The notes: generated by a model from the letters alone, not told the origin. 64,000 nt of DNA from Eubacteriales bacterium (GCA_045127235.1 JBGVPY010000065.1:5546-69545), one strand, 5' to 3'; shown: positions 1 through 16,552, counted from the stretch's first letter. Numbers and translations: made by a program.

Positions 1-800
1 ATTACTTGGTTTGACATGCCGCCAACCTTATTTGTTCTCATAAGTGATTTAGCGGCTAAGAATAAATGGTCTGGTATAATGCGAGGGAACATATTTGTAT
101 AAACTCCCTCTTTGTGGTGTCGATAAATGCCTGTATATCGTTCATTGCGAAGAATACGATATATATTTTTTGTTTCAAAAGGTTTACCATTGGTCTGAGT
201 TATACCTTCATCAGTAAGAGCCTTAACAATATCTTTAGCAATAGTTCCAGCAATGTACATTTCAAATATGCGATTGATAACGGTAGCTTGTTCCTCACAA
301 ACTACATATTTTTTATTTACTACCTTGTAGCCGTATGGAATACCGCCTCCAAAGTAGTTACCTTTGATACGAGTTTCTTTTTGTCCTCTACTTACTTTTT
401 GAGCAAGTTCAACAGAGTAGTATTCAGCCATACCTTCAAGAAGCGATTCCAAAATAATTCCTTCCGGACCTTCTGGAATGTGTTCTTTAGCTGATACAAC
501 TTGAATACCTCTATCTTTTAAGGTTTTCTTGTGAATAGCCATTTCATATTTGTTACGGGAAAAACGGTCAAGCTTATATACAAGCACCATATCCCAATCC
601 GCTTTTTGAGCGTCTTTAAGCATTCTTTGAAAATCAGTTCTATTATCGTTAGTACCTGTCATAGCTCTGTCAATGTATGTACCAACAATGGCAATATCAT
701 TGTATTTAGCATATTCATAGCACTCACGGAGCTGACCTTCAATGGATTGCTCAGTTTGTCCTGCACTCGAATAACGAGCATAAATTACAGCAGTTTTCAT
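1..800 (-). CDS. large serine recombinase (integrase), N-terminal part; 3' end runs off the window
   Basis: Absent from the ORF track because it has no in-window stop. Minus-strand ATG at 800-798 follows AAGGAG (807-812). Translation MKTAVIYARYSSAGQTEQSIEGQLREC...DMVLVYKLDRFSRN...GGGIPYGYKV shows a resolvase catalytic domain (Ser in YARYSS) followed by a recombinase domain, and continues past position 1. Confidence 0.85.
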   Translation of the reverse strand, partial: MKTAVIYARYSSAGQTEQSIEGQLRECYEYAKYNDIAIVGTYIDRAMTGTNDNRTDFQRMLKDAQKADWDMVLVYKLDRFSRNKYEMAIHKKTLKDRGIQVVSAKEHIPEGPEGIILESLLEGMAEYYSVELAQKVSRGQKETRIKGNYFGGGIPYGYKVVNKKYVVCEEQATVINRIFEMYIAGTIAKDIVKALTDEGITQTNGKPFETKNIYRILRNERYTGIYRHHKEGVYTNMFPRIIPDHLFLAAKSLMRTNKVGGMSNQV

Positions 801-1135
801 TTTTATCTCCTTTCGAATTTTATCTTTTTTACTAATTGTAAACTAATTAAGTCCTTCTTTCCAATACTGATATATTTCGAAAAAGCACCTATTTATTCAA
901 CAAGAATTTATGATGAATTTATGATTTCTTACTGATTTATTACTTAAAACAGAAAAAAACCAAAAACATCACCCTCACACGACCATAAAAACGGAAGCTT
1001 GTGAACGTGGCAAAAAATGTGAGTATTTACGAAGATAAAAAAAGTGTCGCCAAATTAAATAATGTAGGGTTATTAGCCCTTATTTTATCTTCTTAACTCT
1101 TCACGAGAACCGGATTTTATGGTATAACCCAAAAC

Positions 1136-1262
1136 AAATCAGTAGTCAATCAGTAATCAATCATATAAAAACCAAAATAAAACCAAAGAAGAAAAGAAAA
1201 AAATAGGTAATCAATCGTAAATGGAATGGGCTAAAAAAGAAGTACCAACATGATGTATATTA
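1136..1262 (+). repeat. repeated intergenic control module, copy A (double 11-mer + conserved promoter-like block)
   Basis: aaatcagtagtcaatcagtaatcaatc (1136-1162), then an AT-rich spacer, then aaataggta...gggctaaaaaagaagtaccaac plus TATATT. Colinear with 3417-3533. Confidence 0.7.
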
Positions 1263-1288
1263 AAGACGGAGAAAAGAAAGGAGGAAAA

Positions 1289-1465
1289 ATGCTAAAGGAA
1301 ATAGAAATAGGGGAAAATCCTTTAGGAATAAAAATATTCATCAACGCAGAGCCGAATTTAGAAAGCGTTCCAAAAGAAGAAATGGAAACCTTAATAGTAG
1401 AAACAGAGGTTCTAATTTCAGAGATATTTGAGAAAAATGTTAAGCGAAGAAAGCCTAAAAAATGA
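1289..1465 (+). CDS. small hypothetical protein (58 aa)
   Basis: The track ORF is 1250-1465. The internal ATG at 1289 sits 5 nt after AAAGGAGG, and the upstream part overlaps the conserved promoter-like block. Confidence 0.5.
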   Translation: MLKEIEIGENPLGIKIFINAEPNLESVPKEEMETLIVETEVLISEIFEKNVKRRKPKK

Positions 1466-1512
1466 TAATGTCGTGATTTCAGGACACCCTCAAAAAAGTT
1501 CAAAAAAGTATA

Positions 1513-1541
1513 TTGACAAAGTGTAATTTATGTAGTATAAT
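1513..1541 (+). promoter_or_regulatory. sigma-70-type promoter of the repressor gene
   Basis: TTGACA (1513-1518), 17-nt spacer, TATAAT (1536-1541). Confidence 0.65.
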
Positions 1542-1548
1542 CAAAAAC

Positions 1549-1561
1549 GAACTACAAGTTC
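1549..1561. promoter_or_regulatory. palindromic operator candidate GAACT-ACA-AGTTC
   Basis: Perfect 5-3-5 inverted repeat immediately downstream of the -10. It resembles the firmicute LexA box but has N5 rather than N4 between GAAC and GTTC. Confidence 0.5.
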
Positions 1562-1588
1562 AATATTGCAAAAAGAGAGGGTGAGGTT

Positions 1589-2236: not shown

Positions 2237-2430
2237 CTCAATGTCATAGGAGTGCCAAAGGCATAAAGAAACAAATAAGGTAATTAACTCAACGAAATCC
2301 CCGTTTTAGTTGCAGTAATTATATATTGGTATTAGAATTAACTAATAAAATGTAGGAAACTCCCATTCCGAACAGGAAATTAGTATCTTCTCCAAGATTT
2401 TAATACCGTGGGAACATAGGAGGTGTAATT

Positions 2431-2601: not shown

Positions 2602-2693
2602 GAAACGTTTATTAAGCAAAGTTGGTTGTGAGAAAATCGACACGTAATCCCTGCTCAATACTTAATAAATAAGGTTCGTGTAAAGGTATATAG

Positions 2694-2742: not shown

Positions 2743-2759
2743 ATGAAAAGGAGAAAAAT

Positions 2760-3062
2760 ATGATGGAAAAAAATAAAATTATCAAGGATCTCAATGAGAT
2801 TAAATATTATTATTCACATAAGGAGTTTTTCGACAACTCCTACAGCATTACCGGCAACAATAAGGTGCTTAATACAATAGAGCGTTACAACAAAGCAATT
2901 TGTGATGCCGACCAAAAAATTCATGAATTATTTGTACTTATGTACATTCAAGGCTTATCTTGGGAAGTAGTAGCGGCAACAAAGCCGTGTTCAATGGACT
3001 ATATATTCAGACACCATAGAAGATTACTTAAATTCTTCCAAGAACATGTACAAGCTGCGTAA
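2760..3062 (+). CDS. hypothetical regulator, sigma-70 region-4-like HTH (phage late-regulator type)
   Basis: The C-terminal part LFVLMYIQGLSWEVVA...MDYIFRHHRRLLKFF resembles a region 4.2 HTH. Judged by eye only. Confidence 0.35.
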   Translation: MMEKNKIIKDLNEIKYYYSHKEFFDNSYSITGNNKVLNTIERYNKAICDADQKIHELFVLMYIQGLSWEVVAATKPCSMDYIFRHHRRLLKFFQEHVQAA

Positions 3063-3074
3063 GGTGGTGAAGAT

Positions 3075-3335
3075 ATGGCAATGACAAAAAGTGGATATAT
3101 GCCTGACTTTATGGTAGGTGCTAACAACGTTTACAGAACGAAGCAATTTATTGTAAAGCAAGAGATTACGATAGTGATGTCAGCGAATAATGATTCCTAC
3201 ATTATTAGTAATGACACGTATTATTTAAGAAATCCAAAAAGAGATTTTGAGTTTGCTATGTGTTTTAAAAACAGACGTTCTCTTAACGGCAAGAGATTAC
3301 CCTGTTCCTCATACACAAGAAAATATGTAGAATAA
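3075..3335 (+). CDS. hypothetical protein
   Basis: ORF with GGTGGTGA RBS, followed by a terminator. Confidence 0.6.
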   Translation: MAMTKSGYMPDFMVGANNVYRTKQFIVKQEITIVMSANNDSYIISNDTYYLRNPKRDFEFAMCFKNRRSLNGKRLPCSSYTRKYVE

Positions 3336-3340
3336 AATAA

Positions 3341-3378
3341 AATCGGTTGATTTCATACACGGGATCAACCGATTTTTT
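3341..3378 (+). terminator. intrinsic terminator
   Basis: aatcggttgat / atcaaccgatt stem followed by TTTTTT. Confidence 0.75.
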
Positions 3379-3416
3379 AATTTTGCCGACAAAATCAATG
3401 CTAAATAAATCGGTGA

Positions 3417-3533
3417 AAATCAGTAATCAATCAGTAATCTTACCAAAATATATAGTAAAAATTTAAGATAAAAATAGGTAGTGAATAGGTAATGCTTAGG
3501 GCTAAAAAAGAAGTGCCACCTTGTGATAGAATC
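3417..3533 (+). repeat. repeated intergenic control module, copy B, with extended -10 promoter
   Basis: aaatcagtaatcaatcagtaatc (3417-3439), then aaataggta...gggctaaaaaagaagtgccacc, then TGaTAGAAT (3524-3532). Confidence 0.7.
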
Positions 3534-3739: not shown

Positions 3740-4066
3740 ATGGCAGAAAAGAAGAGCGCACCTGTAAAAGCTCCTGCAACTAATACAAGACGTTGGGAGA
3801 CACCTTCCTACCGTGCTGCATATTACGCAGTTGAGAGAAAGAACAAGGTGCATATGAGAGGACAGAAGAACGGACACGAGCTTACACCTACAGAAGCAAC
3901 ATTCCGTTCAGGATATTTGCAGTGTCAGGGCGACCATGCAGCGTCATACAAGTATCATAAGGCGATTGCCGAGGGTAAGACAAAGCAGGAAGCAACACTC
4001 ATTTCCCAGTCTGTAAACTCAAGACCGGCGCAGTTGCCACCGCCTAAGAAAAAGAAAGGCAACTAA
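3740..4066 (+). CDS. hypothetical basic protein (108 aa)
   Basis: AGAGGT RBS. Lys/Arg-rich N- and C-termini (PPPKKKKGN). First gene after a ~210-nt leader. Confidence 0.7.
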   Translation: MAEKKSAPVKAPATNTRRWETPSYRAAYYAVERKNKVHMRGQKNGHELTPTEATFRSGYLQCQGDHAASYKYHKAIAEGKTKQEATLISQSVNSRPAQLPPPKKKKGN

Positions 4067-4136
4067 TTTAGGGTAATAAGTAACCCAAACGAAAAATCTA
4101 TCAAATCAATTTATTAAATTTTAGGAGGTAAAAAAT

Positions 4137-4478
4137 ATGAACAAGACAATTTTTGTCAAGAGAGAAACTTATGAAAAGGACGGTAAGGTACGTTTTACAT
4201 ACTTTGTTGAGGGTAACGTAAGAGGTCAGTATGTTAAGGCATCAGTAGTTCCACACGACTTTGGTGGTTACGGCGTACTTGATATCGTATTTAACGGTGC
4301 AATGGAAGCCGAGCTTATCACTAAGAACTTTGAAATGAAGGATGAAAAGGGCAAGGTAACAGGTACAGTTACAACCTACGCTGTAATTTCAAAGGACGAG
4401 GATGGCACAGTATATGAATGTGCTGTTAAGCCTAATCGTAAGTCCGACAAGGACTATCTCGGTATGCTTGTAAGATAA
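4137..4478 (+). CDS. hypothetical small beta-rich protein (possible ssDNA-binding analogue; speculative)
   Basis: AGGAGG RBS, 113 aa, directly followed by a strong terminator. Size and position resemble inovirus gene V. No motif proof. Confidence 0.7.
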   Translation: MNKTIFVKRETYEKDGKVRFTYFVEGNVRGQYVKASVVPHDFGGYGVLDIVFNGAMEAELITKNFEMKDEKGKVTGTVTTYAVISKDEDGTVYECAVKPNRKSDKDYLGMLVR

Positions 4479-4505
4479 GAAAAGCATAGAATAACTAACG
4501 AAATG

Positions 4506-4541
4506 GGCTTGTGTTCAAATACGAGCACAAGCCTATTTTTT
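4506..4541 (+). terminator. intrinsic terminator / attenuator
   Basis: ggcttgtg...cacaagcc stem plus T-run. Confidence 0.75.
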
Positions 4542-4572: not shown

Positions 4573-5745
4573 ATGAAAAAGAGAATTTTAGCATTCATTT
4601 TATGTATTCTTACGGTTTTCACTTGTGTAATTATCACAAGCTGCTCACCGGAGGATAAAACAGATAATTCATCCACAGGTACGGAAGAAAAGGACGACGG
4701 ATACAAGGTTGTTCCTGTTGATAATGTACCTGATGTAGCAACAATGGATGGAACAGCAATGGTATCAAATGTGTCATATAAAATGGCACGTAGTGGTATG
4801 GTATTTGCTACTCCTACCGCTTATTCAAGAACAGCAGGCGAGGGCATTACTCTTGAAGCAACAGTTGAGCCTTCATTTGCGACAAAAACAGCAGTAGATT
4901 GGTCTGTTTCATTTGCTAATCCCGAAAGTACATGGGCAACAGGCAAGAATGTAACAGATTATGTAACGATTACACCTACATCCGATGGTAGTTTAACTGC
5001 AAACCTTGTATGTGTGCAGCCTTTTGGTGAGCAGATTATCGTAAAGGTAATGTCAAGGGAAAATGCAGAAATTTCAGACACGTGTCCCCTTGAATATATG
5101 CGTAGAGTAGAGGATGTTTACCTTACTATTGGTAACGATATTACACTCACACCCGATTCACCTACATATGTAGATTTTGAAATTGCATCCGGCAATAAGG
5201 GTAAGGGTGGTAAGGTATTACTCCACGTAGAATTTACCGACGTTTATACCATTGAGTCTTGGGCTGGTGATGGTTATGACGCTTCTGACCTCAGTCAGTG
5301 GGGAGTTATTGCAGGAAATACATCATTAAATGAAAGAGGTTCAATGTCCTCGTTTGAAGGACAGCTCTCAGGCGGCGGAGTTAAATTTACAGGCGTACCT
5401 AATTTCTGCTATGTAGAGTGGACTAAGGATAAGGATATTTACTTTGATGTAGATTACCTTTCTGACCTTGGAGCTTATCTTATGAAGGATTCGGGTGGTG
5501 CTACATATAACATCAACAACGAAGATCCTGAGTTTTTAAATGCAGTTCTTACTGATGCAAAAGCAAGAGGTACAGACACACTCTTCTGGTTTGAGGTTAT
5601 TCACCCTACAAACAACAGAATCCATTTTGAAGTAAAGATTGGCGACATTGTAAATAGTGGTGTAGCACCTAAAAATATTACTCTTAATCAAACAACATAT
5701 GATTTCAACGCAACCGAGCTTGATTATTTGAAGTTTGGAGAGTGA
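4573..5745 (+). CDS. lipoprotein with Big_2-like Ig domain
   Basis: Signal peptide with lipobox IITSC. ITLEATVEPSFATKTAVDWSVS...VTITPTSDGSLTANLVC is Big_2-like. Paralog of 6367-7314. Confidence 0.75.
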   Translation: MKKRILAFILCILTVFTCVIITSCSPEDKTDNSSTGTEEKDDGYKVVPVDNVPDVATMDGTAMVSNVSYKMARSGMVFATPTAYSRTAGEGITLEATVEPSFATKTAVDWSVSFANPESTWATGKNVTDYVTITPTSDGSLTANLVCVQPFGEQIIVKVMSRENAEISDTCPLEYMRRVEDVYLTIGNDITLTPDSPTYVDFEIASGNKGKGGKVLLHVEFTDVYTIESWAGDGYDASDLSQWGVIAGNTSLNERGSMSSFEGQLSGGGVKFTGVPNFCYVEWTKDKDIYFDVDYLSDLGAYLMKDSGGATYNINNEDPEFLNAVLTDAKARGTDTLFWFEVIHPTNNRIHFEVKIGDIVNSGVAPKNITLNQTTYDFNATELDYLKFGE

Positions 5746-5753
5746 TTTAAGAA

Positions 5754-6374
5754 ATGAGCAATAACACAAACAAGGTATTAAGAATTTGTGCAATCGTGGT
5801 TGTAGTGCTTATTTTAGTCGCTGTTATTGCTTTTATAGCTATCAATGTAGTGAGAGAGTCGCAAAAAGCGAATTTCTACTTAGTGCATAATGGCACACAA
5901 ATTACAGAAAGCACAAATGAAATGTTGCTTGAAAGAGGAACACCTGAGAAATTTGAAATAGCATATTTTGAAGGTATGGAAGAAGAAAAACAGGGCTATT
6001 ACGTAACTGTTGAATGTATTCCGGGCGGCAATAATTTCTATTTCAAGATCCAAGGTCAAGACTCTTCATTTTATGCAACGAAATCCGACGTAACAGAGTT
6101 TTTTGAAATTGATAAGCAAGAGGAATATTTTACTATTACTCTTGATGAAGATTATCGAGCAACAGATGTTATTGAGTGGGTTTATTCAGACAAGAGAGTT
6201 TACTTCCCAGAGGAAGTAGATTGCTCAAAAGCCTTCTTTCAAATCGTAGTTCACTTAGAGGATGGCACAAGCGTATATAAAATGCCATTCAGATGTGAAT
6301 ATGTGGCAGAAGGCATCAACATAGACAAAGGAACAGTACCAGACTATTTCGGAGGAGGATTTAGTAATGAATAA
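5754..6374 (+). CDS. N-terminally anchored membrane protein, paralog of 7327-7890
   Basis: TM segment ICAIVVVVLILVAVIAFIAI. Shares the GYYVTVE...FYF...EEYFTIT pattern with 7327-7890. Confidence 0.7.
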   Translation: MSNNTNKVLRICAIVVVVLILVAVIAFIAINVVRESQKANFYLVHNGTQITESTNEMLLERGTPEKFEIAYFEGMEEEKQGYYVTVECIPGGNNFYFKIQGQDSSFYATKSDVTEFFEIDKQEEYFTITLDEDYRATDVIEWVYSDKRVYFPEEVDCSKAFFQIVVHLEDGTSVYKMPFRCEYVAEGINIDKGTVPDYFGGGFSNE

Positions 6375-7314
6375 GATAGCAGGTATTATAATAGCTATTT
6401 TAATCCTTATGGTAGTGGGCTTAGGAATAGGACTTTTTGTACAAGCCTCTCCTGACGAACCTGAGAAATTAGGTGATGTAGTAGAGCCTACACCTTTGGA
6501 TGAACAGCTTAACATGGAAATGGAGAATAGCGAACATATTGAATTGCTCGCAGCTCCTATGACAATCGGTGAAAATTGTGTAACAAAAACACTCACCGCA
6601 GTTATTATTCCAGCAACAGCAGAGGACAAAACGGTAGATTGGAGTGTAGCTTGGGGAGATACAACCAAAACAGAAAATGTACAAGATTACATTAAGGTTG
6701 TACCAACAGGTGATGGCTCAAATGTAGCAAATGTCAACTGTTATAAGCAATTTACAGGTGAAATCATAATCACTGTAACAACAAGAACAGGCGGTTTCAA
6801 GGCTAAATGTACAGCAACATATATTGGTGTACCTACAAGCATTAAGGTAAGTTCAACACTTACTAAAAATAGCAATAACACTTATGAAATTCAGCCTAAT
6901 TCAACAGCATCATTCCTTATTGAACAGGAAAGCATTTTAGGTGATGTAAAAGCAGGTGGATATAACAACTATGAAATCACTACAAAAGGCTTCGGTTCAG
7001 TAATTCTCGGCTATTATGAAACATATAGGAGTGGTGGCGAGAATTGGTATGATGCAAGTGATGAAATCTATAATTATGAAGATTTGATGGAGAATTACAT
7101 CACCATTAAATTAAGTGGCAATTCTGTTCAAGTGGAAACACACGAACCGATTGAAGATTATTATAAGTCGGTTAGTGTAATTGACGGTGGCAGAACAAGA
7201 GCATATAAGGACAAATTCCGTTCTTATGTAAGCGATTGTTACGTTTTAGTTACTGTAACAGAAAAGACTTCTGGTCTTTCAACAAGCTTTAAGGTAGCAG
7301 TTGCTAAGCAGTAA
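6367..7314 (+). CDS. membrane-anchored protein with Big_2-like domain
   Basis: N-terminal TM. LTAVIIPATAEDKTVDWSVAWGD...VVPTGDGSNVANVNC. Overlaps the upstream stop by 8 nt. Confidence 0.75.
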   Translation: MNKIAGIIIAILILMVVGLGIGLFVQASPDEPEKLGDVVEPTPLDEQLNMEMENSEHIELLAAPMTIGENCVTKTLTAVIIPATAEDKTVDWSVAWGDTTKTENVQDYIKVVPTGDGSNVANVNCYKQFTGEIIITVTTRTGGFKAKCTATYIGVPTSIKVSSTLTKNSNNTYEIQPNSTASFLIEQESILGDVKAGGYNNYEITTKGFGSVILGYYETYRSGGENWYDASDEIYNYEDLMENYITIKLSGNSVQVETHEPIEDYYKSVSVIDGGRTRAYKDKFRSYVSDCYVLVTVTEKTSGLSTSFKVAVAKQ

Positions 7315-7326
7315 GGAGGCGATAGA

Positions 7327-7890: not shown

Positions 7891-9977
7891 TGCACGCAAG
7901 AGTGGTTAAAAAGATACTGCTCGGCGTAATCGCAATGCTACTTGTACTCATATCGGTATTCGCTACCCCTATGAGTATAGTGGCAGCATCAATAAGTGAA
8001 GAGTCGAGCAGTCCAGATTACAGTAAAACTAATGTGCTTGACGATTTAAGACACTGCACAATAAACGGTAAACCCTTTAATATTGCCGATTTCCCTTATG
8101 ATGAAAGTAAGGATATACAGGTAATAAGCTTTGTAGAATATTGCTATTCCTATAAGGCAAATCAAAGAGATAATTACGGCTTGTATGTTTATGTTTACAA
8201 TCCAAAAGGCTTAGATTTGTCTAAGAGCCAGAATTTTAACAAAATTCAGATGGCAATATCCTTTAATGGCGAGGGTAAACCAAATGATTATTACAAATTT
8301 CCATTGGAATTTTGTTCAAGAGTGGAAAACGGTGATTACAAGAACCTTTTCTACAAATTTAAGGTAGTTGACAAAGAGGTAAACGGAACGCATTTTGCTG
8401 ATAGAGTAAATTCAAATGAACGTAAATATTATGTTTCGGGAATTGAGCTTGCAACATATACAAGCGACAATGCAACTGATTACCCGGTTGGAGGCACTTA
8501 TGTTTTCACGGGATATGCAAAGGGCTACGGACCTGATCCGTTAGCTTCAAGCACACTTGATTGTGATATTGAGTTTCTTGAAACAATAAGCCTTAATGTA
8601 AAGCATACATTTTATCGTTCAATGACATCTGCACTTGGCGCAGGACACCAAAATCAGCTTGACACAGTATATTTTTCAGTCCCTAAAAAGTACATTGATA
8701 CATATGGTAAATTACAGAGAATAAAAGCAGAATGGTATGAGTACAAAACGAAAGAAATTGTTGTAACGAGTAATGAAGATTTTGCAAAAGAGTTAAGAAA
8801 TTTTCTTGGTAAGTATGCGGAAGAATCCGGGGGTATAAATCTTGGAGAGCCTCAACGAGAAAGATTTGATACAGACTATGGTTTGATGACTGATTGGACT
8901 GAACAAGAAGCAAATCTTTGTATTTGGGGTTGGAATGTAGGAGATTGCTATTATGCCTCAGAGGATGCTTGCCCTTCACTCCATTATTTATTTGAAGTTG
9001 ATAATATTGATGAATATGATCCATACGCCGATTTGAAAGACATAGGTGGAGTTCAAAGCAATGCACTATACGAATGGATTAAAACATATAACAAATCTTA
9101 CCGAAACGGAACGTTGCCAATAAAAGAAGGAAACATAAGTGCTGACTTGTTTGAGAGCGATATTGATGAAAGCAGAAAACTTGATAGCATATACGGAAAA
9201 ATCAAAAATGGATATAGCTATTACGATTTTGATGCAGACGTTGATTTACAGGTTCTTAATAGCTGGTCGAGTACATCACCAAGCTTTTGGGATAACTGGA
9301 AGAATTTCGGCTTAGGAGCTGCTTTTTCGGGTGGTCCTGATGAAGAAAGCATTACAGTAGCACCTATTTATATTCTCAAGGAAAGCGACTTACAAGGCAC
9401 AAATAAGGAAATTGCCCAAAGATTGCTTATTAACATAAACGACGTTGACAGTCTTAAAGCAGAGTACAAAAACGCTAAAACTCTTACATCTGTAACCGAT
9501 GAAGAGTGTGAGGTTGTTTTGTTCCGTTTTGCAACAAGCGATTATTTTTCAAAGCCAGCAACTATTTTAATTAAAAATGGTGGTTTCTTATGGACTAATA
9601 AGAAAATAAATGACGAAGCTTATATAGCACAGGAAAGTGTTTTCTTTGATTTCGACATTATTCAGCTTACATTTCAAAGGGATGGCGTATATACAGTAAT
9701 TCCTGTTGTATCAAGTCCGATTGATATTGTTAACGATATAACACCACCAACCGACCACAGTGAAGATGCGTGGTGGAAAATCCTCATAGCAATTTTAATA
9801 CTTATTCTTTTAGTATATTTGCTTTGGCCGGTTCTCCCACAGGTTATTTCACTTATCATATCCATTTTTAGATGGATAATTAAAATCATTCTGTACCCGT
9901 TCAAGCTTATAGGTAAAGCCTTTAAGAAATCAAGGGACAAGCCTAAAGAGGACGATATAGACACAAATACACAATAA
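7887..9977 (+). CDS. large secreted protein with C-terminal membrane anchor (adsorption/pIII-like topology)
   Basis: N-terminal signal peptide (LLVLISVFATPMSIVAAS) and a C-terminal hydrophobic anchor WWKILIAILILILLVYLLWPV... with a basic tail. Confidence 0.7.
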   Translation: MMHARVVKKILLGVIAMLLVLISVFATPMSIVAASISEESSSPDYSKTNVLDDLRHCTINGKPFNIADFPYDESKDIQVISFVEYCYSYKANQRDNYGLYVYVYNPKGLDLSKSQNFNKIQMAISFNGEGKPNDYYKFPLEFCSRVENGDYKNLFYKFKVVDKEVNGTHFADRVNSNERKYYVSGIELATYTSDNATDYPVGGTYVFTGYAKGYGPDPLASSTLDCDIEFLETISLNVKHTFYRSMTSALGAGHQNQLDTVYFSVPKKYIDTYGKLQRIKAEWYEYKTKEIVVTSNEDFAKELRNFLGKYAEESGGINLGEPQRERFDTDYGLMTDWTEQEANLCIWGWNVGDCYYASEDACPSLHYLFEVDNIDEYDPYADLKDIGGVQSNALYEWIKTYNKSYRNGTLPIKEGNISADLFESDIDESRKLDSIYGKIKNGYSYYDFDADVDLQVLNSWSSTSPSFWDNWKNFGLGAAFSGGPDEESITVAPIYILKESDLQGTNKEIAQRLLININDVDSLKAEYKNAKTLTSVTDEECEVVLFRFATSDYFSKPATILIKNGGFLWTNKKINDEAYIAQESVFFDFDIIQLTFQRDGVYTVIPVVSSPIDIVNDITPPTDHSEDAWWKILIAILILILLVYLLWPVLPQVISLIISIFRWIIKIILYPFKLIGKAFKKSRDKPKEDDIDTNTQ

Positions 9978-10018
9978 ATTTTGTATGGTAACGGAATTGT
10001 TACCAAGAAAGGAGAAAA

Positions 10019-11641
10019 ATGAAAAACACAATAACAATTATTTTAGCAGTAGTTTTAGTTATTGCTTTAATCGGAGCAGTAGCAATTTTGTTCAAGCCTG
10101 ATGTGCCTGATACACCTACAGATACCAGCACCGACACAAGCACAGATTCAAGCACTGATAAGCAGCCCGATAACAATGATGACGATTCAGGCATCGGTCC
10201 TCAAAAGCCACCTATCATTTTGGTAGAGGATGTAGAAGAGCTTACAACTGCTCTTACAAGCATTGAAAACGGTGCAACAATAGAAATTCCTTCAAGCATT
10301 GAACTTACTGAAACACTCAATATTGGAAATAAGGATGTAACATTCATATTTTCCGAGGATTTTGACAAAACAGTAAGTGTAGAGCTTGAAGAGGGTAAAC
10401 TTACCATTATGAACGGTCATTTTAACGGTATTGACATTGGAGGTAAAGGCACACTTATTCTTGATAATGTAATGTCTTTAGCAACAACCGAGGGAGATAG
10501 CGGTTTAGCACTCCTTGATGGTGCAGATATCACTGTAAAAATCGTAGGTAATGTATCACTTACCGGTGCAAAAGACGGTGATGGTATTGAAGTACCTTAT
10601 GGAACTAAGCTCTTACTCACAGGTGATAGCCTTGTAGCAGTAGGAAATAACGGTCTTGAATATTTGGCAATAGACGGCTATGGAAACACAGATGATGAAA
10701 CATATCTAAATAAGAGGGGTAGTGGCATAGGAAATGCCGTCAAGAACATAGGTTCACTAACCATTAAGGATATGGCTTCACTTACAGCTAAGGGCTATGG
10801 AAACAAGGCTTTTGGTATTGGTGGTGGAGATAAATCTGTTGTAACCATTGAGAATACCGTTATTGAATACGCAAAAGGCGGTTTTGCACAGGAAACATTT
10901 ATTGCAAGTGATTTAAGCTATGGTAAGGCAGAAGCCGAAGGTGGTTGTGCTATCGGTGTCGGTTGTGGTGTTGACGGCGACTATGACTCTGGAATGCTCA
11001 AAATGAAGAACGTAACTGTTAAAAAGGCAGACGGTGGCTCAAAATCAGCAGCTATTGGCGCTCTTTATTGGACTGCGGTAGATATTTCAATCGTAGATTG
11101 TAATTTCGACCAAATCACAGGTGGAACTGCATCAGCAGGTATTGGTGGTAGCCGAGTATATAAGGGAGTAAGCAAAGACCAGTATGTCAAGATTTTCATT
11201 GATAATTCTAAGATTAACGTAAAGGGCGGTCAGTATGGAGCAGGTATAGGCTCAGGCTATGACTGTTATTGCCAGACAAATTATGGCGTTACTTATATAG
11301 AAATTATCGGTGAAGATACAGTTATCAACGCTCAAGGTGGAATTAACGCAGCAGGTATTGGCACAGGACACCATAGTGCAGGACTTGCGGGATATATTTC
11401 AACCGATTGTAAGGTAACTGCAAAGGCAGGCGAAATGTTCATTTATGAAACTGAATACTCAAAGCCACAGGATATTGGATATGGTATGTGTAAGCCTACA
11501 AATGAGCTTGCAAACGTAGCATATGTATTTGATGTTCAGGGTAATGTGGTAGAGCAGCCAATTTTCTTACCTTTACCGGAAGAAAATGGTGGTTCGGAAA
11601 ATCCTATTCCCGATATAGACGATAATATTCAGGAGGTGTAA
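10019..11641 (+). CDS. membrane-anchored repeat protein (beta-helix-like GxGxG repeats)
   Basis: N-terminal TM, a PDTPTDTSTDTSTDSSTD linker, and recurrent AIGVG / SAGIGG / GAGIGSG / AAGIGTG motifs. Confidence 0.7.
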   Translation: MKNTITIILAVVLVIALIGAVAILFKPDVPDTPTDTSTDTSTDSSTDKQPDNNDDDSGIGPQKPPIILVEDVEELTTALTSIENGATIEIPSSIELTETLNIGNKDVTFIFSEDFDKTVSVELEEGKLTIMNGHFNGIDIGGKGTLILDNVMSLATTEGDSGLALLDGADITVKIVGNVSLTGAKDGDGIEVPYGTKLLLTGDSLVAVGNNGLEYLAIDGYGNTDDETYLNKRGSGIGNAVKNIGSLTIKDMASLTAKGYGNKAFGIGGGDKSVVTIENTVIEYAKGGFAQETFIASDLSYGKAEAEGGCAIGVGCGVDGDYDSGMLKMKNVTVKKADGGSKSAAIGALYWTAVDISIVDCNFDQITGGTASAGIGGSRVYKGVSKDQYVKIFIDNSKINVKGGQYGAGIGSGYDCYCQTNYGVTYIEIIGEDTVINAQGGINAAGIGTGHHSAGLAGYISTDCKVTAKAGEMFIYETEYSKPQDIGYGMCKPTNELANVAYVFDVQGNVVEQPIFLPLPEENGGSENPIPDIDDNIQEV

Positions 11642-11643
11642 TT

Positions 11644-11991
11644 ATGGCAGAAACAGCAACATTTAAGGAAAAGGCATCCCAAACATGGGGTATGGCTAAG
11701 GAAACAGGCAAAGAAGCGTGGCAAAAGACAAAAGAAGGCACGAAGAAGGCTTGGAGTAAAACAAAGGAAGCAACCAAAAAGGGTTGGGAAAAGGGTAAGA
11801 AAACTTACGGTGAAACCAAAACCGATTGGAAGGCTTCGTATAATGTAGGTTATAGCTCTGGTGTAAATGACTATGAGCAGGTAGCATCACGTTTCGGTAG
11901 CAAGTTTATGGCAACAGTTGGTTACAGAAACGGTCTTAGAGAAGCACATAGAAACGCTAAATACTTGAAGAAGCTCAACAAAGAGCAGTAA
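11644..11991 (+). CDS. Lys/Trp-rich 11-mer repeat protein
   Basis: KEAWQKTKEGTKKAWSKTKEATKKGWEKGKK places Trp every 11 residues. Confidence 0.65.
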   Translation: MAETATFKEKASQTWGMAKETGKEAWQKTKEGTKKAWSKTKEATKKGWEKGKKTYGETKTDWKASYNVGYSSGVNDYEQVASRFGSKFMATVGYRNGLREAHRNAKYLKKLNKEQ

Positions 11992-12001
11992 GAGGTAATC
12001 T

Positions 12002-12331
12002 ATGGCTTTCAAGGCATATGATTTTAAAAAGCACTTCGCTTACATAGCAGATGTGTTAGGGGATGAAGTGTCATACGATAATTTATCTTTATACCTTGAT
12101 AGCAGGCTCTTTTTAAGAAACGAAAAAGACGGTAATTTTGCCCAGATTGTTTATCTCACAAATGACAGATTCAGAGTTATTCTGTGTCTAAACAAACTGG
12201 GCTGTATCGTCCACAAAACCTCAAAATCCTTTGAGACGTGTATAAATTTCTTGAAAGATAACGCCTTTATATCAACAGGTATCATTAGAAAATGGAAAGT
12301 AAACAATAAGAAAATAAAGGAGAATATTTAA
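12002..12331 (+). CDS. hypothetical protein
   Basis: ORF in the operon. Its stop overlaps the next start (TAATG). Confidence 0.6.
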   Translation: MAFKAYDFKKHFAYIADVLGDEVSYDNLSLYLDSRLFLRNEKDGNFAQIVYLTNDRFRVILCLNKLGCIVHKTSKSFETCINFLKDNAFISTGIIRKWKVNNKKIKENI

Positions 12332-12495
12332 TGAAAACATATCACATTGTTAGAGCCGAGTACAGATATTTTGTAGCGGTGGAAACATTTAGTTTAAGAG
12401 GAAGAAAGCCATTACATACATTCGAAGCGAAGGACTTCTTGGAAGCTATTGAGTATAAGAATAATTATGTAAGGGAGAAGAAGCTCGTATGGTAG
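12331..12495 (+). CDS. small hypothetical protein (54 aa), not in track
   Basis: The ATG shares an A with the upstream TAA. The 3' end overlaps the ATG of 12489. It fills an otherwise empty gap in a tightly packed operon. Confidence 0.4.
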   Translation: MKTYHIVRAEYRYFVAVETFSLRGRKPLHTFEAKDFLEAIEYKNNYVREKKLVW

Positions 12496-12764
12496 GAATA
12501 TTTGGTTGGTTTAGAAAACGAAAAGAATTAAAGCAGAGCCAAAAATATCATCAAGAGCGAAAAGCAGAATTAGAAGCGAAGAATAGCAGAGGCGGGCTTC
12601 CATTACCTAAAGATTGGATAAATGAGGAATATCATATAAAAGTCTTTAAAAGGCAAAAAGAGCTTAAAAGGGTTTTAACTAAGGATGAGTTGAAACAAGT
12701 GCATCAAGAAACCACTAAAGATGTTTTAGACTTTGTTGATAAGCATTTATTCAAAATATCATAA
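12489..12764 (+). CDS. hypothetical protein
   Basis: ORF in the operon, charged coiled-coil-like. Confidence 0.55.
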   Translation: MVGIFGWFRKRKELKQSQKYHQERKAELEAKNSRGGLPLPKDWINEEYHIKVFKRQKELKRVLTKDELKQVHQETTKDVLDFVDKHLFKIS

Positions 12765-12776
12765 CGGAGGAAAATA

Positions 12777-13118
12777 ATGAAAAAAGTAAAAAGGATATTA
12801 GCAATAGTATTCTTGATACTTGTCATATGGGCGATCGGCTATTTGTGTCTTACAGGTAGCCGATTGTTTTTTAATGACGGTAATGAGGATACGTTAAAAG
12901 GAACATTTTATCAATATAACAATAAAGAGTATTTCTTAGAAATTTCAGATACGTTAGAAGCCAGACTTTATACACAGGGTGTGGGAAAATTGCTAACGTA
13001 TGACAGTTTTAAGGACGGAATAGTTAAATATATAGATGGCGAAACGCCTTATTATTTTGCTATTCTCCCAGAAGGACTATTCGATTTGCAAGAACGCATA
13101 GTGCTGGAGGTGTATTAG
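12777..13118 (+). CDS. small membrane protein (N-terminal TM)
   Basis: GGAGG RBS. TM ILAIVFLILVIWAIGYLCL. The TAG stop lies 1 nt before the next ATG. Confidence 0.65.
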   Translation: MKKVKRILAIVFLILVIWAIGYLCLTGSRLFFNDGNEDTLKGTFYQYNNKEYFLEISDTLEARLYTQGVGKLLTYDSFKDGIVKYIDGETPYYFAILPEGLFDLQERIVLEVY

Positions 13119-13119: not shown

Positions 13120-15228
13120 ATGAGTAGGAGAATGAGAATAGTTAATATAATTCTAACCACACTAATATTTGGAGGCTTTATAGCTCTTGCAATATTTGTG
13201 TATAAAGACTCTTATGCACGTGTTTGGGAGTCAATTCAAGACCTTTGGAACAGTCTTAAATTCTTCGTAAAGGAAGTGTTTATGCTCAATTTTGAAGCAG
13301 AGCCAACCGTTACAGATTTTTCAAAGGTATTACAGTGGCAAAAAATATTACCAGAGGATTTTGAAAATTTCAAGCTTAAATTTGGAGCATATTTCAGTTT
13401 GTTTGCTACGAAAGAGAATTTTAATTTGTACATGTCTAACGTGGGAACAACACTTGCGAATTTCTCTAAATCATTGGTTATCATAATTCCTGTAGGACTA
13501 ATTTTGTGGTTGATTATTAAAGCCATGTATAGCAAAAGCAATACAAGGCATAATCACGATACGTTACCCCTTAAAATGTATAAAAAGTTTATGGGAATAT
13601 CGTATCATCCAATTAGAAATTTTATTTCGCAGTACATAAGATTTTATCGAAGCAATCAAAATTTAGTAACTGCAACGATAATTTTGTGGCTGCTGAATTT
13701 CAATCTTATAACAGTTTTAATTGAATTTTTAGCTTACTATTTCTTCTTTGTAGTAACCTATGACGTGTCAACGCTTTATATTCAATTTGGCAAGTTATTT
13801 ATAGATTTACAGGCAATATTCATCCACGTCCCCCTATGGATTATCATAATCTTCGTTGTAAGGTGGCTTCATAATCGTAGGAAAAGCATAGCAAAATCGC
13901 AACTTAGACACATGGAAGCAAGAAACTGTGGTTTTATAAATGAATTGCCTATTGTTTCAATGACTTGCGGATCAATGGGAAAGAAGAAAACAACCGTCAT
14001 AACCGATATGGCCCTTAGCCAAGAGGTAATGTTCAAACAAAAAGCATTCGACCTTTTACAGAAGAATGATATGCGTTTTCCAAATTTCCCGTGGATATGC
14101 TTTGAGGACGAGCTTAAAAAGTGTATTGAGTATCATACGGTATATAACCTTGCAACCATTAAGGACTGGGTTAATAAGAAACGTGAACGTTTTGAAAGAG
14201 TAGGAAATGTACATACTCAATTATATGATTACGAGATTGAAAAATATGGGCTTTATTTTGATGATGGCTTAAAGCACTTGTATTTGTTTGATGTTTTAAG
14301 TACATACGCTCAGTTATACTTTGTGTACGTCATTGAAAGCAGCTTAATTGTAGCCAATTATTCCATAAGAACAGAAAACATAATGATAGATGCGGGCAAC
14401 TTTCCTATGTGGATATATGATTTCTTTCCGGAAGCAACATCTTGTGAAGGAAGGCACGCACACATTATTGATTATGATGCTTTGAGATTAGGCAGAAAGG
14501 TTATAGAGGACAATCCTAAAATCGGCAGCTTTGAATTTGGTGTATTAGTAATGTCTGAGATAGGCAAAGAGAGAGGAAACAATCTTGAGCTTCGAGAAAT
14601 AAAAAAGAGCAAGGATGAAACAAACCAGAAAAATGATTTGTTCAATTCTTGGCTCAAAATGTGCAGGCACTCAGCAACTATTGATAACTACCCATTTATA
14701 AAGGTGTTTACTGACGAGCAAAGACCGGAGTCATGGGGAGCAGATGCCAGAGATTTATGTGATATTCTAACAATCGTTTCTTGTGGCGACCAAAGAATAA
14801 CTTTGCCGTTTTACATTTATGAGGAAATGATAGTAGAAATATCGCTTAATTGGTTTTTAGGAATATATTATGATTTTAGACACAGGCGAGGGGATAATAC
14901 ACTTTTTGTGCATATCTTAAAGAGCATTATAACCAAACTGTTCAAATACAATTTGAGAAACTATAACCGATATGGGTATAGTGTAGCATTTATTGAAAAA
15001 GAAAGCGGTAAAATGGATGGAAAAATTAAGAAAAAGAAGTATTTTATTTTGAATAAAAAGATATACGCAAGACGTTTTTCAACCGACTGTTTTAGCGACT
15101 ATTTCAATGATATTGCAAGAAGTACATATATCGGACTTGATGATTACGTTGAATATCAAACCGAGAGAGCCACAGTGGACGAGCTGCTTCAACAGAACAG
15201 TTATTTCATTGACTCTCTATACAGTTAA
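13120..15228 (+). CDS. polytopic-membrane P-loop NTPase, possibly Zot/pI-like assembly ATPase
   Basis: About 270 aa containing several TM helices, then Walker A CGSMGKKKTT, Walker-B-like GVLVMSE, and CRHSATIDNYPFIKVFTDEQRP reminiscent of the Zot HRH...TQ segment. Confidence 0.45.
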   Translation: MSRRMRIVNIILTTLIFGGFIALAIFVYKDSYARVWESIQDLWNSLKFFVKEVFMLNFEAEPTVTDFSKVLQWQKILPEDFENFKLKFGAYFSLFATKENFNLYMSNVGTTLANFSKSLVIIIPVGLILWLIIKAMYSKSNTRHNHDTLPLKMYKKFMGISYHPIRNFISQYIRFYRSNQNLVTATIILWLLNFNLITVLIEFLAYYFFFVVTYDVSTLYIQFGKLFIDLQAIFIHVPLWIIIIFVVRWLHNRRKSIAKSQLRHMEARNCGFINELPIVSMTCGSMGKKKTTVITDMALSQEVMFKQKAFDLLQKNDMRFPNFPWICFEDELKKCIEYHTVYNLATIKDWVNKKRERFERVGNVHTQLYDYEIEKYGLYFDDGLKHLYLFDVLSTYAQLYFVYVIESSLIVANYSIRTENIMIDAGNFPMWIYDFFPEATSCEGRHAHIIDYDALRLGRKVIEDNPKIGSFEFGVLVMSEIGKERGNNLELREIKKSKDETNQKNDLFNSWLKMCRHSATIDNYPFIKVFTDEQRPESWGADARDLCDILTIVSCGDQRITLPFYIYEEMIVEISLNWFLGIYYDFRHRRGDNTLFVHILKSIITKLFKYNLRNYNRYGYSVAFIEKESGKMDGKIKKKKYFILNKKIYARRFSTDCFSDYFNDIARSTYIGLDDYVEYQTERATVDELLQQNSYFIDSLYS

Positions 15229-15588
15229 TTTTGAAAGGAGTTGATTTATTTAATGCCATACGAAAAAATGAAAATTTATTTCGATGGCAGCCATTAGCAT
15301 TATATAGGAATACCTCATACCGAAAAACCCAAGAAAGACAGAATAAAACGAATAGAGGAATTAGTTACGGTTATAGAGGATGAAGAAACAAAAGACGGAG
15401 AAAAAGAAGCTTCTGAACCCACTTTCGCAGACATATTAGAAGCTGAAATTTCGTCCGAAAATATCGCTGTTATCGAAGAAGAAAGCAAAGTCGAAAGTGG
15501 CGAAAAACAGGTTGAAACGCCTGTTAAAACACAAAAAAAGGCAACCCGAAAAGAACTATTTAATGGTTTTTATGAGGAAAGCAAGAAG

Positions 15589-16314
15589 TTGAAAAAAGCT
15601 AAGCGTAAAGAGTATATTTTAGAGCGAATGAAACCGTATTTTAAGTATCATGAGTTAGCTGTAAGATTTGTTGATGAAAATATAGAGAGAATTGAACGAA
15701 ATATAATATGCAGACGAAAACGAATGGTAAGAAAAGTAAACCTACAGGAATTCAATTATTTTTGCACATTTACATATGATGATAAGAAGCATACAGAGGA
15801 AAGTTTTAGAAAGAAATTAACACTATGTTTAAGGCGATTTAGCAGTACAAAAGGCTGGAAATATGTAGGGGTATGGGAACGCTCGCCAAAGACGCAAAGG
15901 CTTCATTTTCACGGCTTATTTTATGTTCCAGAAGGCACAATGCCTACAATGATGATAATAGAAGAAGGATATGATTTTAATGCACATAAAAGGCGTAAAG
16001 TAAAGCAATGCGGATTTTTCTTAGAGAAATTTGGCAGAAACGATTTTGAGGATATAGACCACCCAATGTTAAAAAGTGAAGGTATGCGATACATAATGAA
16101 ATATCTTGAAAAATCAGGTGAAAAGATTGTATATTCACGAGGACTGCCACAGTATTTTATCTCAGATATATGGGAAGAGGATATAGCTTGTCCTTACAAC
16201 GAAGAAGAAACAAAATTTCTACTTTTCGACAACTTCGGTTGTTGGGACGAAGGAGTTTACATAGGACAGGTAAGCCCGGAAGTGATAGAACAAATGCCGA
16301 AATCAAATGTATAA
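15589..16314 (+). CDS. HUH rolling-circle replication initiator (Rep); the frame extends upstream to 15253 through an in-frame TAG
   Basis: Motif 1 FCTFTYD, motif 2 LHFHGLF (HUH), motif 3 YIMKYLEK (Y-x3-Y). The TTG start is the first start after TAG 15295-15297. Codons 15298-15588 are open in the same frame. Confidence 0.8.
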   Translation: MKKAKRKEYILERMKPYFKYHELAVRFVDENIERIERNIICRRKRMVRKVNLQEFNYFCTFTYDDKKHTEESFRKKLTLCLRRFSSTKGWKYVGVWERSPKTQRLHFHGLFYVPEGTMPTMMIIEEGYDFNAHKRRKVKQCGFFLEKFGRNDFEDIDHPMLKSEGMRYIMKYLEKSGEKIVYSRGLPQYFISDIWEEDIACPYNEEETKFLLFDNFGCWDEGVYIGQVSPEVIEQMPKSNV

Positions 16315-16338
16315 ACAAAAAATGACAACGAATAAGCC

Positions 16339-16498
16339 GCCGAGGGTGTTATGCGTTGCTTTGGCAAGCGGTTCAGCGCCAAACACGCATCCCCTCGGCT
16401 TCGTTCATTTTGTTTCTTTGATTCGGTTTCTATCTTTGGGCGTGTGCTTGTCTTCGCCGAGCGAAGCGAGGCGACTTGTATCAAGACAAGCACACGCC
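16339..16498. other. two GC-rich stem-loops, candidate replication origin
   Basis: Hairpin 1: gccgaggg (16339-16346) pairs with ccctcggc (16392-16399), with inner pairings. Hairpin 2: perfect 16-bp stem 16439-16454 / 16483-16498, with GCGAAGC at 16461-16467 in the loop. Confidence 0.5.
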
Positions 16499-16530
16499 TA
16501 AAAACGCGTTACTTCTAATCATTACTTTCC

Positions 16531-16552
16531 GATTACTGATTGATTACTGATT
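16531..16552 (-). repeat. inverted copy C of the 22-bp double 11-mer
   Basis: The reverse complement aatcagtaatcaatcagtaatc matches 3418-3439 at 22/22 and 1137-1158 at 21/22. Confidence 0.8.

Follow-up and report, generated by a model that had tools for sequence, protein, structure and literature searches.

An undescribed family of integrative rolling-circle elements with its own membrane ATPase in gut Clostridia

Introduction

The stretch of DNA studied here, called the window throughout, comprises 64,000 nucleotides of an Eubacteriales bacterium (GCA_045127235.1 JBGVPY010000065.1:5546-69545) and carries an integrated mobile element of the rolling-circle type with its own novel membrane ATPase and surface-protein module. 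The question that this locus raises is how such an element passes its DNA out of the cell. An earlier note, made from the sequence, had taken positions 1–16,552 for an inovirus-like prophage of unusual size and regulation; its observations were confirmed in part and its interpretation was supported in part. We find that the element belongs to a very large and hitherto undescribed family of integrative elements in gut Clostridia. This family is real, widespread and unclassified, and its export route could be either a particle or cell contact. The reading that we favour, at a probability of about 0.4, is that a temperate single-stranded DNA (ssDNA) element under repressor control leaves the cell as a capsid-less particle by means of its own membrane module.

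The pI/Zot-like ATPase (PF05707) is the only conserved marker of inoviruses and defines them, and pI was placed in the FtsK-HerA superfamily by Roux et al. 2019 (PMC6813254). The inoviruses of gut Clostridia contain a stand-alone Zot domain along with an inovirus major coat protein in small genomes (PMC8530359). By analogy, the nearest concept to the present element appears to be IME1 of Dehalococcoides, a capsid-less element with an ATPase and membrane proteins that was found in virus fractions and was proposed to be a new non-lytic budding or filamentous virus (bioRxiv 10.64898/2026.09.15.751708). No description of the family was found when the literature on it and on its closest analogues was searched.

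Results

The element reaches about 40 kb and belongs to a large family

Comparison with ~200 related loci placed the element from left of window position 1 to ~40.05 kb, and the stretch of 1–16,552 covers the left 40% of it. The conserved left core ends at ~16.5 kb, and the left module alone is ~13 kb and contains mostly long genes. The DNA similarity to most relatives ends directly after the second of two hairpins of a putative origin (16498) and that to the closest relative, L007, at 17374, and near-identical elements (92–95%) diverge exactly at the same point. Further right, the homologs of a convergent gene module recur downstream of the origin in related loci whereas the genes right of 40.3 kb have no such homologs there, and therefore the element was taken to reach ~40 kb. 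The right boundary at 16,552 and the placement of all genes except the recombinase on the + strand, both proposed earlier, had to be given up, because conserved element genes recur beyond the cargo and a conserved − strand module extends to ~40.05 kb.

The family comprises 390 loci in species-representative genomes, chiefly Christensenellaceae/Christensenellales, 'Eubacteriales', Gallimonas and Acutalibacteraceae metagenome-assembled genomes (MAGs), with two copies in some genomes and many insertion contexts. The core gene order is kept across ~87 loci, and the size of the element across the family is at least 18–40 kb. When the window was compared with L007, the ratio of nonsynonymous to synonymous substitution rates (dN/dS) was 0.05–0.26 for the 16 genes that were correctly compared, which indicates purifying selection and an element that is not decaying; the 108-aa gene was mismatched in this comparison and gave no estimate. 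No direct repeats (att) flanking the element were found, as expected of a serine recombinase. The ATPase was found in 0 of the 72,556 plasmids of PLSDB. In a 4.8-kb contig of an Anaeroplasmataceae MAG (L063), an ATPase–Rep pair was binned to a wall-less Mollicutes-like genome, an assignment that could be a binning error or could bear on the host range.

Pfam and PHROGs recognised only the recombinase, the repressor and the replication protein (Rep) among the 22 core open reading frames (ORFs) scanned, and gave no match to capsid, portal, terminase, tail, holin or lysin in this set, in agreement with the earlier description of an integrated mobile element without conventional virion genes. Similarly, Pfam domains of VirB4, VirD4, VirB6 and cell-wall hydrolases were absent from the 62 ORFs scanned across 1–64 kb, and no known RNA families were found in the window. 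The core genes gave no match with PADLOC, and a defence function of the core was rejected on this ground.

The membrane ATPase founds an unannotated family

The genes and sites between the small soluble proteins and the putative origin are as follows.

3740–4478, + strand: small soluble proteins of 108 aa (basic, isoelectric point 10.1) and 113 aa; homologs in 56 and 58 loci, 56–59% identity
4573–7890, + strand: two tandem gene pairs, each of an Ig-like lipoprotein or anchored protein (390, 315 aa) and an N-terminally anchored protein (206, 187 aa)
7887–9977, + strand: 696-aa protein with a signal peptide, a large ectodomain and two C-terminal transmembrane (TM) helices; homologs in 69 loci
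10019–12764, + strand: lineage-specific accessory genes for a 540-aa anchored repeat protein and ORFs of 115, 109, 54 and 91 aa, present in only 4–18 loci
12777–13118, + strand: short single-TM protein just 5' of the ATPase gene, with the conserved N-terminus MKTVKRIIAV...VGYL.FTGS
13120–15228, + strand: 702-aa membrane P-loop ATPase (AlphaFold2 pLDDT 93.7)
15253–16314, + strand: HUH rolling-circle Rep (PF23343 REP_ORF2-G2P 9.3e-12, above the curated cut-off)
16339–16499, + strand: putative origin of two hairpins, GC-rich, folding z = −6.1

The ATPase was modelled with AlphaFold2 from an alignment of 133 sequences, which gave the predicted local distance difference test (pLDDT) value listed above, and an earlier shallow alignment had given a pLDDT of 59 and was unusable. 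In the model, the N-terminal ~270 aa are all-helical and polytopic and the C-terminal part forms an alpha/beta P-loop domain, so both features that were noted earlier for the 702-aa protein stand. The Walker A motif reads GxMGxGKTT (K290), with GSMGKKKT listed for the window protein, the Walker-B strand ends in an invariant E480, and R535 is also invariant. Homologs number >3,300 among 90%-identity cluster representatives and fall into 1,204 clusters at 50% identity; among the matches listed they are mostly of 700–800 aa, and a Pfam domain or functional name was attached to none of 120 of them. The window ATPase itself gave no sequence match in Pfam, PHROG, PADLOC or PDB, and it founds an unannotated family. 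In the locus L055 (1616–3730), the ATPase is split into two ORFs.

The relation of the ATPase to known DNA motors was monitored by domain searches and by fold. FtsK_SpoIIIE, TraG and T4SS-DNA_transf were absent among the 25 most frequent of the 39 families matched by 65 diverse members, and TrwB, VirD4 and FtsK were not found in the best 50 PDB fold matches, where the full-length query may blunt the sensitivity. The FtsK/TraG match with type IV secretion partners nearby that the earlier note had considered was thus not obtained. The best PDB fold matches were HerA (E 0.07), B204 and AAA+ proteins, and the fold matches overall were weak and included HerA, the STIV2 B204 packaging ATPase, a poxvirus A32-like ATPase and terminases; the best match to a viral fold was A0A894JLK1 (E 2e-4). 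These weak matches point to an ASCE ATPase of the FtsK-HerA kind but do not narrow it further.

A phage-type Rep is followed by a putative hairpin origin

The Rep is of the G2P type of inoviruses and plectroviruses, and its motifs FxTxTY, RLHFH and YxxKYxxK are invariant, confirming the HUH Rep with Y-x3-Y that had been recognised earlier. The Rep of relatives is ~349 aa, and the window frame, which starts at 15253, aligns over its full length to a 349-aa homolog.

The GC-rich hairpins that had been seen downstream of rep were also confirmed by folding and are conserved in most of the ~75 loci examined. Hairpin 1 (~16339–16401) contains the invariant loop CAAGCGGnTnAGCG, and hairpin 2 (~16437–16499) contains the invariant GCGTGTGCTTGTC...CTYGTATCAAGACAAGCACACGC; both its 13-bp stem and its asymmetric bulge, CTYGTATCAA, are invariant. 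Compensatory changes were found in 14 of the 33 pairs, and 97.3% of the hairpin cells were paired as compared with 85.7% in shuffles (0/500) and 26–46% when the partners were slid. From this pattern the two hairpins were read as a putative replication origin, the invariant 20-nt core of which is GTATCAAGACAAGCACACGC.

Unrelated DNA abuts exactly at |GTATCAAGACAAGCACACGCC in the 3' arm of hairpin 2 in three loci (L161 at 7374, L184 at 3199, and the second copy in L080 at 16543), and a junction with unrelated DNA at GTATCAAGAC| was found in L065 (~10300). Junctions inside the 3' arm of hairpin 2 are expected of a site of Rep cleavage and joining, and those found here resemble the outcome of strand transfer by Rep, or of the capture of cassettes, at the nick site. 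In L080 (13331–21253), cassette-like units are bounded by the origin half-site, one of them with an ABC transporter. Tandem origin arrays, with 2–3 copies of the core within 0.05–0.7 kb, are present in L121, L127, L183, L189 and L155. Three further loci (L110, L133, L168) contain a Rep C-terminal fragment and the origin, with no ATPase match within the fetched flanks. In addition, a degenerate site resembling the origin core, GTATCAAGAGAAGAACACAC, with 3 mismatches, is found in L023 (2501), L026 (1473), L027 (2501), L028 (378) and L038 (3475). It has the orientation of the true origin and precedes it by ~9.8–12.9 kb (9.85 kb in L038), and ~0.1 such matches are expected by chance across all loci. 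This site could be a second Rep site that lets replication leave the integrated state.

Membrane-anchored and small soluble proteins precede the ATPase gene

The genes of this part are ordered as two small genes, a terminator, five to six anchored ectodomain proteins, the short TM protein, the ATPase and Rep. Analysis of TM segments and lipoboxes predicted a membrane topology or anchor for seven proteins (390, 206, 315, 187, 696, 540 and 113 aa) and no TM segment for the ORFs of 115, 109, 54 and 91 aa, and thus the earlier statement that nearly all ORFs of 4573–13118 carry a signal peptide or TM segment holds for the former and not for the latter. The 390-aa protein has a lipobox and the 315-aa protein is its paralog, as judged by cross-matches; the proteins of the gene pairs are conserved in 44–61 loci, and the Ig-like genes gave a weak PHROG match to an Ig-domain structural protein. 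The 390/206 and 315/187 pairs resemble a tandem duplication of one two-gene unit, the copy number of which varies in relatives. The 696-aa protein, for which a signal peptide and a C-terminal anchor had been proposed, has two C-terminal TM helices; its family (33-sequence alignment, 56% mean column identity) gave no PDB or Pfam match, including a search of the family profile against PDB sequences. The accessory genes are under purifying selection when compared with L007 (dN/dS 0.06–0.19).

The anchored proteins other than the short TM protein are of 187–696 aa. The short TM protein is of 43–48 aa in most relatives, where its gene overlaps the ATPase gene, and gave no match to known coat families in Pfam or PHROG. 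The two small proteins at 3740–4478 are closed by a strong terminator with a 17-bp stem (4500–4539), as had been noted earlier, and strong terminators are found on both sides of these genes; the terminator behind them suggests high expression. The 113-aa family has >2,100 homologs, all without annotation. Neither the 108-aa nor the 113-aa protein gave a PDB, Pfam or PHROG match, and the profile of the 113-aa family returned nothing from the PDB sequences.

The left end carries integration and regulatory genes

The features at the left end, together with the copies of an 11-bp repeat, are given below.

1–776, − strand: large serine recombinase, N-terminal 258 aa (Resolvase 2.7e-26, Recombinase 8.4e-20)
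1137–1158, + strand: tandem pair of the 11-bp repeat AATCAGTAATC, site 1, between the integrase and the repressor
1513–1541, + strand: consensus sigma-70-type promoter TTGACA-17-TATAAT (12/12 hexamer matches), preceding the repressor gene
1589–2236, + strand: LexA-like / S24 peptidase repressor (Peptidase_S24 3e-22, LexA_DNA_bind 1.8e-6)
2760–3335, + strand: two conserved small early proteins of 100 and 86 aa; homologs in 41 and 42 loci
3418–3439, + strand: tandem pair of AATCAGTAATC, site 2, upstream of the operon of small proteins and membrane proteins
16531–16552, − strand: tandem pair of AATCAGTAATC, site 3, inverted relative to sites 1 and 2, just past the origin

The recombinase gene runs past the left edge of the window and its homologs are ~505 aa; they are the leftmost genes on the − strand in L015, L023, L027 and L038 (56–58% identity) and show 48% identity in L073. 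Homologs of the repressor occur in 22 loci. The domain matches agree with the recombinase and the S24/LexA-like repressor of the earlier note, whereas for its sigma-r4-like regulator only a weak, sub-threshold TrmB match of the early small proteins was obtained. A terminator at 3339–3376 follows the genes of 100 and 86 aa.

The repeat AATCAGTAATC has 9 matches in the window as compared with 2.3 expected, a number reached in 0 of 100 shuffles. All three pairs are intergenic, and the ~80 nt that follow site 1 resemble those that follow site 2 (73% identity). In L029, L059, L060 and L068, other sequences form a comparable inverted match that links the region past the origin with the beginning of the structural operon. 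The arrangement of the repeat pairs implies a sequence-specific DNA-binding protein of the element.

Defence cargo and a convergent module lie right of the origin

The right part of the element and the flank beyond it contain the following features, the last six of which lie outside the element.

16718–17292, + strand: two lineage-specific ORFs of 126 and 65 aa
17431–31265, + strand: variable cargo region (Pfam, PADLOC)
31615–40053, − strand: conserved convergent module (Pfam and homologs downstream of the origin)
42111–43901: second large serine recombinase, along with an AAA_25 ATPase
46178–47026: microbial PARG
49056–51980: two DNA methyltransferases
52205–56449: 1414-aa STAND-like NTPase
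59292–61022: MobL relaxase
61047–63696: two tyrosine integrases

The cargo of the window consists of a 211-aa protein, DUF6508, a type I restriction–modification (R-M) system (HsdM, three HsdS, a tyrosine recombinase and HsdR), GmrSD, a 186-aa protein and a PDC-M09B-like 519-aa protein. The type I R-M locus (18669–29119) has three hsdS genes or fragments, an embedded tyrosine recombinase (21369–22424) and 29-nt repeats at 20732, 22429 and 23484, with the GmrSD gene next to it, and is a phase-variable specificity shufflon. A terminase/portal region of a conventional prophage at 18.6–22.4 kb was considered and rejected, as this region is the type I R-M system with its recombinase. The cargo slot repeatedly holds defence systems at the same position, all on the + strand, and tolerates a length of 0.4–15 kb. 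The cargo of other loci is as follows.

L007: GmrSD and type I R-M
L028: GmrSD and type I R-M (HsdR, HsdM)
L042: GmrSD and an HsdM-like methylase
L018 and L024: R-M genes
L004 (MT835493): Ssp (SspABCD-like) and Pbe (PbeA/PbeC-like) phosphorothioate systems

The convergent module encodes a 103-aa protein, PcfJ-like, PcfK-like with MutS_I, a 138-aa protein, the ArdA anti-restriction protein and a 108-aa protein, with others between them. Homologs of these six were found in 57, 54, 41, 28, 13 and 14 loci, respectively, downstream of the origin at a distance of 0.4–8 kb, on the opposite strand and transcribed toward the origin. The PcfJ domain occurs in 171 phage records and 493 plasmid records and is therefore not diagnostic. 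Upstream of the module, the folding score is only z = −3.3, and we make no claim of an ssDNA promoter. Mobile and defence genes outside the element span 41109–63696, and the window is an accretion of several integrative elements.

Discussion

Export as a capsid-less particle, the reading that we favour, would proceed as follows. DNA damage would inactivate the repressor, and Rep would nick the + strand in hairpin 2 near CTYG/TATCAAGAC, with the predicted cleavage within CTYGTATCAAGAC, leading to rolling-circle replication and + ssDNA. The proteins of 108 and 113 aa would coat or chaperone this strand, and the ATPase, the short TM protein and the anchored ectodomain proteins would push it through the membrane with no lysis, giving a capsid-less particle that may be filamentous or membrane-derived. 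We infer in particular that the + strand displaced from the origin is exported through the module of the ATPase and membrane proteins. The 696-aa and Ig-like proteins may serve adsorption and entry, and on entry the convergent module may be transcribed with the incoming + strand as template to provide early anti-restriction. To the same tentative degree, we liken the working of the element to that of a chronic virus, filamentous or pleomorphic. It is not demonstrably in any known virus family, and its membership in Tubulavirales is not established.

The phage-type Rep, the terminator after the small genes, the lack of type IV secretion genes among the 62 window ORFs scanned and the absence of the ATPase from plasmids were counted for a particle, and the leading-region layout, the ATPase beside an HUH nickase, the variable cargo and the near-absence from virus catalogues were counted for contact transfer. 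The favoured reading also draws on the covarying origin hairpins and the junctions inside hairpin 2, the predicted topology of seven membrane proteins, the high-confidence ATPase model with its weak fold matches of the FtsK-HerA type, the purifying selection, the conserved gene order, the S24 repressor and the precedent of IME1. A number of results weigh against the particle. PF05707 (Zot) matched neither the window ATPase nor the 65 diverse family members at E ≤ 1, the alignment of the ATPase with a 35-sequence Zot profile by hhalign covered only 17–29 P-loop columns at 7–25% probability (the profile is narrow, and the control, phage B5 ORF8, scored only 29%), and pI was not found among the best 50 BFVD fold matches. 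The ATPase is thus not detectably pI/Zot, the one inovirus hallmark, and as no pI/Zot was detected the element falls outside the inoviruses as defined by Roux et al. The CRH...FTDEQRP stretch that had been likened to Zot was rejected as a Zot motif, since CRH...TDEQRP was not aligned with HARK...LIQ of Zot in trimmed profile–profile runs, in which the P-loop only was aligned. No inovirus-type major coat protein was found with Pfam or PHROG, and the short TM protein, the sole short one, is extended to 113 aa in the window lineage. The ArdA/PcfJ/PcfK module and the pair of membrane ATPase and HUH Rep also fit a conjugative or mobilizable element. With its cargo, the element is at least 40 kb, which is to our knowledge far above any known ssDNA virion. 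The ATPase was found in 2 of the 2.9 million contigs of IMG/VR, no circular or permuted contigs or terminal overlaps were found among ~200 loci, and the sole 'phage' record with the ATPase (L004, MT835493.1, 57 kb, 'UNVERIFIED: Bacteriophage sp.') is really a bacterial contig holding an integrated copy with flanks. Finally, the Rep frame of the window has an in-frame TAG at codon 15 (15295–15297), and the first start codon past it is TTG at 15589. The TAG is common to L007 and L008, the ATPase of which is 89% identical to that of the window, and was found in none of ~70 other loci with a full-length Rep match. The dN/dS of 0.22 for the codons 3' of the TAG makes the expression of Rep past it by read-through or re-initiation possible. 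An unusually large inovirus-like prophage is therefore not sustained, given the missing pI/Zot and coat protein, the size and the convergent module; the filamentous-phage logic of the earlier note survives as one of two live readings, and the membership that it implied does not.

The other live reading, a conjugative-type self-transmissible or mobilizable element with a new apparatus, is nearly as likely as the particle. Its parts, which call for the same reserve, would be Rep as a relaxase at a hairpin oriT, the ATPase as the coupling or translocation motor, the ectodomain proteins as mating adhesins or channel parts, and ArdA/PcfJ/PcfK as a leading region expressed from the transferred strand. 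The conservation of ArdA, PcfJ-like and PcfK-like genes past the origin, on the opposite strand and transcribed toward it, is a leading-region layout known from F-type and Tn916-type conjugative elements, and the ATPase gene abutting the HUH Rep resembles the coupling-protein and relaxase modules of integrative and conjugative elements (ICEs) and integrative and mobilizable elements (IMEs) of Firmicutes; the range of cargo tolerated, the integration beside other integrative elements and the scarcity in virus catalogues point the same way. However, Pfam found no VirB4, VirD4/TcpA/FtsK, VirB6 or hydrolase in the 62 window ORFs, the best 50 PDB fold matches include no TrwB, VirD4 or FtsK, PLSDB contains no copy of the ATPase, although conjugation modules are as a rule common to plasmids as well, PcfJ is also frequent in tailed phages (the 171 phage records), and Rep is of the phage G2P type and not of Rep_trans or a MOB family. 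It is improbable that the element is a hitch-hiker, that is, a satellite or IME that replicates alone and is moved by the capsid of a helper phage or by a helper type IV secretion system, with the membrane block as cargo, for example for surface modification or exclusion. An integrase, a repressor and its own Rep and origin without virion or type IV secretion genes would suit such a life, orphan origins and remnants of a Rep fragment and origin exist, and IME1 elements of similar size were first read as satellites (bioRxiv 10.64898/2026.09.15.751708). Yet the block of membrane proteins and ATPase is the most conserved and syntenic part of the family and adjoins rep with little space between genes, most relatives have an overlap of the short TM gene with the ATPase gene, no small terminase, capsid-remodelling or packaging-site genes were found, and the flanks hold no consistent helper.

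An extremely divergent true member of Tubulavirales, in which a pI homolog gained an N-terminal membrane domain and drifted past detection, is quite improbable. The G2P-type Rep, the placement of pI in the FtsK-HerA superfamily (PMC6813254) along with weak fold matches to the same superfamily, the short single-TM protein adjoining the ATPase and the weak positive control of the Zot profile (B5 ORF8) are consistent with it, but gut Clostridial inoviruses keep a recognisable Zot and coat protein in small genomes (PMC8530359), only the P-loop aligns with Zot and no pI appears in the BFVD matches, and the placement of the membrane domain is opposite, with long genes and a large genome. A domesticated or defective immobile island kept for its defence cargo or surface proteins is very unlikely: the premature TAG of Rep in the window lineage and the lack of excised forms in assemblies would fit, but the compared genes are under purifying selection, including the rep codons past the TAG, the family is very diverse, with many insertion contexts and often several copies per genome, and contigs often break at the origin.

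When the element is set beside known systems, Tubulavirales (Inoviridae, Paulinoviridae, Plectroviridae) resemble it in the G2P/ORF2 Rep, the structured origin, the absence of lysis genes, a terminator after a small and probably highly expressed gene pair, membrane-inserted structural candidates followed by a membrane ATPase, and a temperate lifestyle with an integrase in some members. They differ in that the ATPase of the element is not Zot/pI by sequence, profile or fold and, unlike pI, has its polytopic membrane domain at the N-terminus, and in that the element has no inovirus-type coat, core genes of 187–702 aa, a defence slot and the ArdA/PcfJ/PcfK module. Inoviruses have short structural proteins (30–90 aa, single TM), for which the element has one candidate, of 43–48 aa in most relatives and 113 aa here, and in place of a small genome with short genes, which inoviruses package as circular ssDNA in a filament, it has a left module of ~13 kb in a total of ~40 kb. 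IME1 is alike in being integrated (20–28 kb), without tailed-phage hallmarks, and in its modules for regulation and integration, ATPase with TM and signal-peptide proteins, and replication. It is reported to encode a detectable pI-like ATPase along with a tyrosine recombinase, SSV1 VP1-like proteins and, for dsDNA replication, a primase-helicase, and to be confined to Chloroflexota (bioRxiv 10.64898/2026.09.15.751708), and by this description it is set apart from the present element with its HUH Rep, serine recombinase and non-pI ATPase.

Firmicutes ICEs and IMEs (Tn916/ICEBs1/ICESt3, with relaxases of the rolling-circle replication (RCR) type) share with the element the integrated state, a membrane ATPase beside an HUH nickase, a putative hairpin nick site, ArdA and Pcf-type genes placed much as in a leading region, and cargo genes. 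Some ICEs (SXT) use an S24-type repressor. Unlike them, the element has no VirB4, VirB6, VirB8-type or hydrolase genes, its Rep is not Rep_trans, and its ATPase is not FtsK-, TcpA- or VirD4-like and is absent from plasmids. Actinomycete integrative and conjugative elements (TraB) differ in the same sense, as no FtsK_SpoIIIE domain and no FtsK among the fold matches was found. Plasmaviridae (Acholeplasma phage L2) and Pleolipoviridae offer an analogy of topology, which applies to the 696-aa protein and the ATPase: they have an NTPase and several membrane proteins, among them one like a spike, anchored at its C-terminus and made with a signal peptide, and alphapleolipoviruses use an RCR Rep as the element does. 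These viruses form capsid-less enveloped particles, integrate and are released without lysis. The hosts of the element are walled Clostridia. Homology with plasmavirus L2 was rejected, as hhalign and BLASTP gave nothing significant against L2 ORF1, ORF3 and the ORF13 envelope protein.

Little is known of the mobile elements of Christensenellaceae and related Clostridia, which are prominent gut bacteria associated with health, and a family that is unrecorded in Pfam, PHROGs, PADLOC and PLSDB, and almost so in IMG/VR, would be missed by standard virus and plasmid pipelines. We put forward, as a tentative view, that it may represent a new non-lytic bacterial virus lineage or else a system, just as new, that transfers ssDNA with a single ATPase. 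It would be common among Christensenellaceae and further Clostridia of the gut, its export machinery would be unrelated to that of inoviruses, plasmaviruses and type IV secretion, and its Rep nick site would double as a cassette-capture point loading defence systems beside the origin. The invariant 20-nt origin core could be used to find such elements in metagenomes. If particles are formed, non-lytic capsid-less viruses would extend to a major Gram-positive gut group with new machinery, and if transfer is by contact, this would be conjugation without a type IV secretion system. In both cases the element contains a hotspot through which defence systems (type I R-M, GmrSD, Ssp/Pbe) are reshuffled among strains of the gut.

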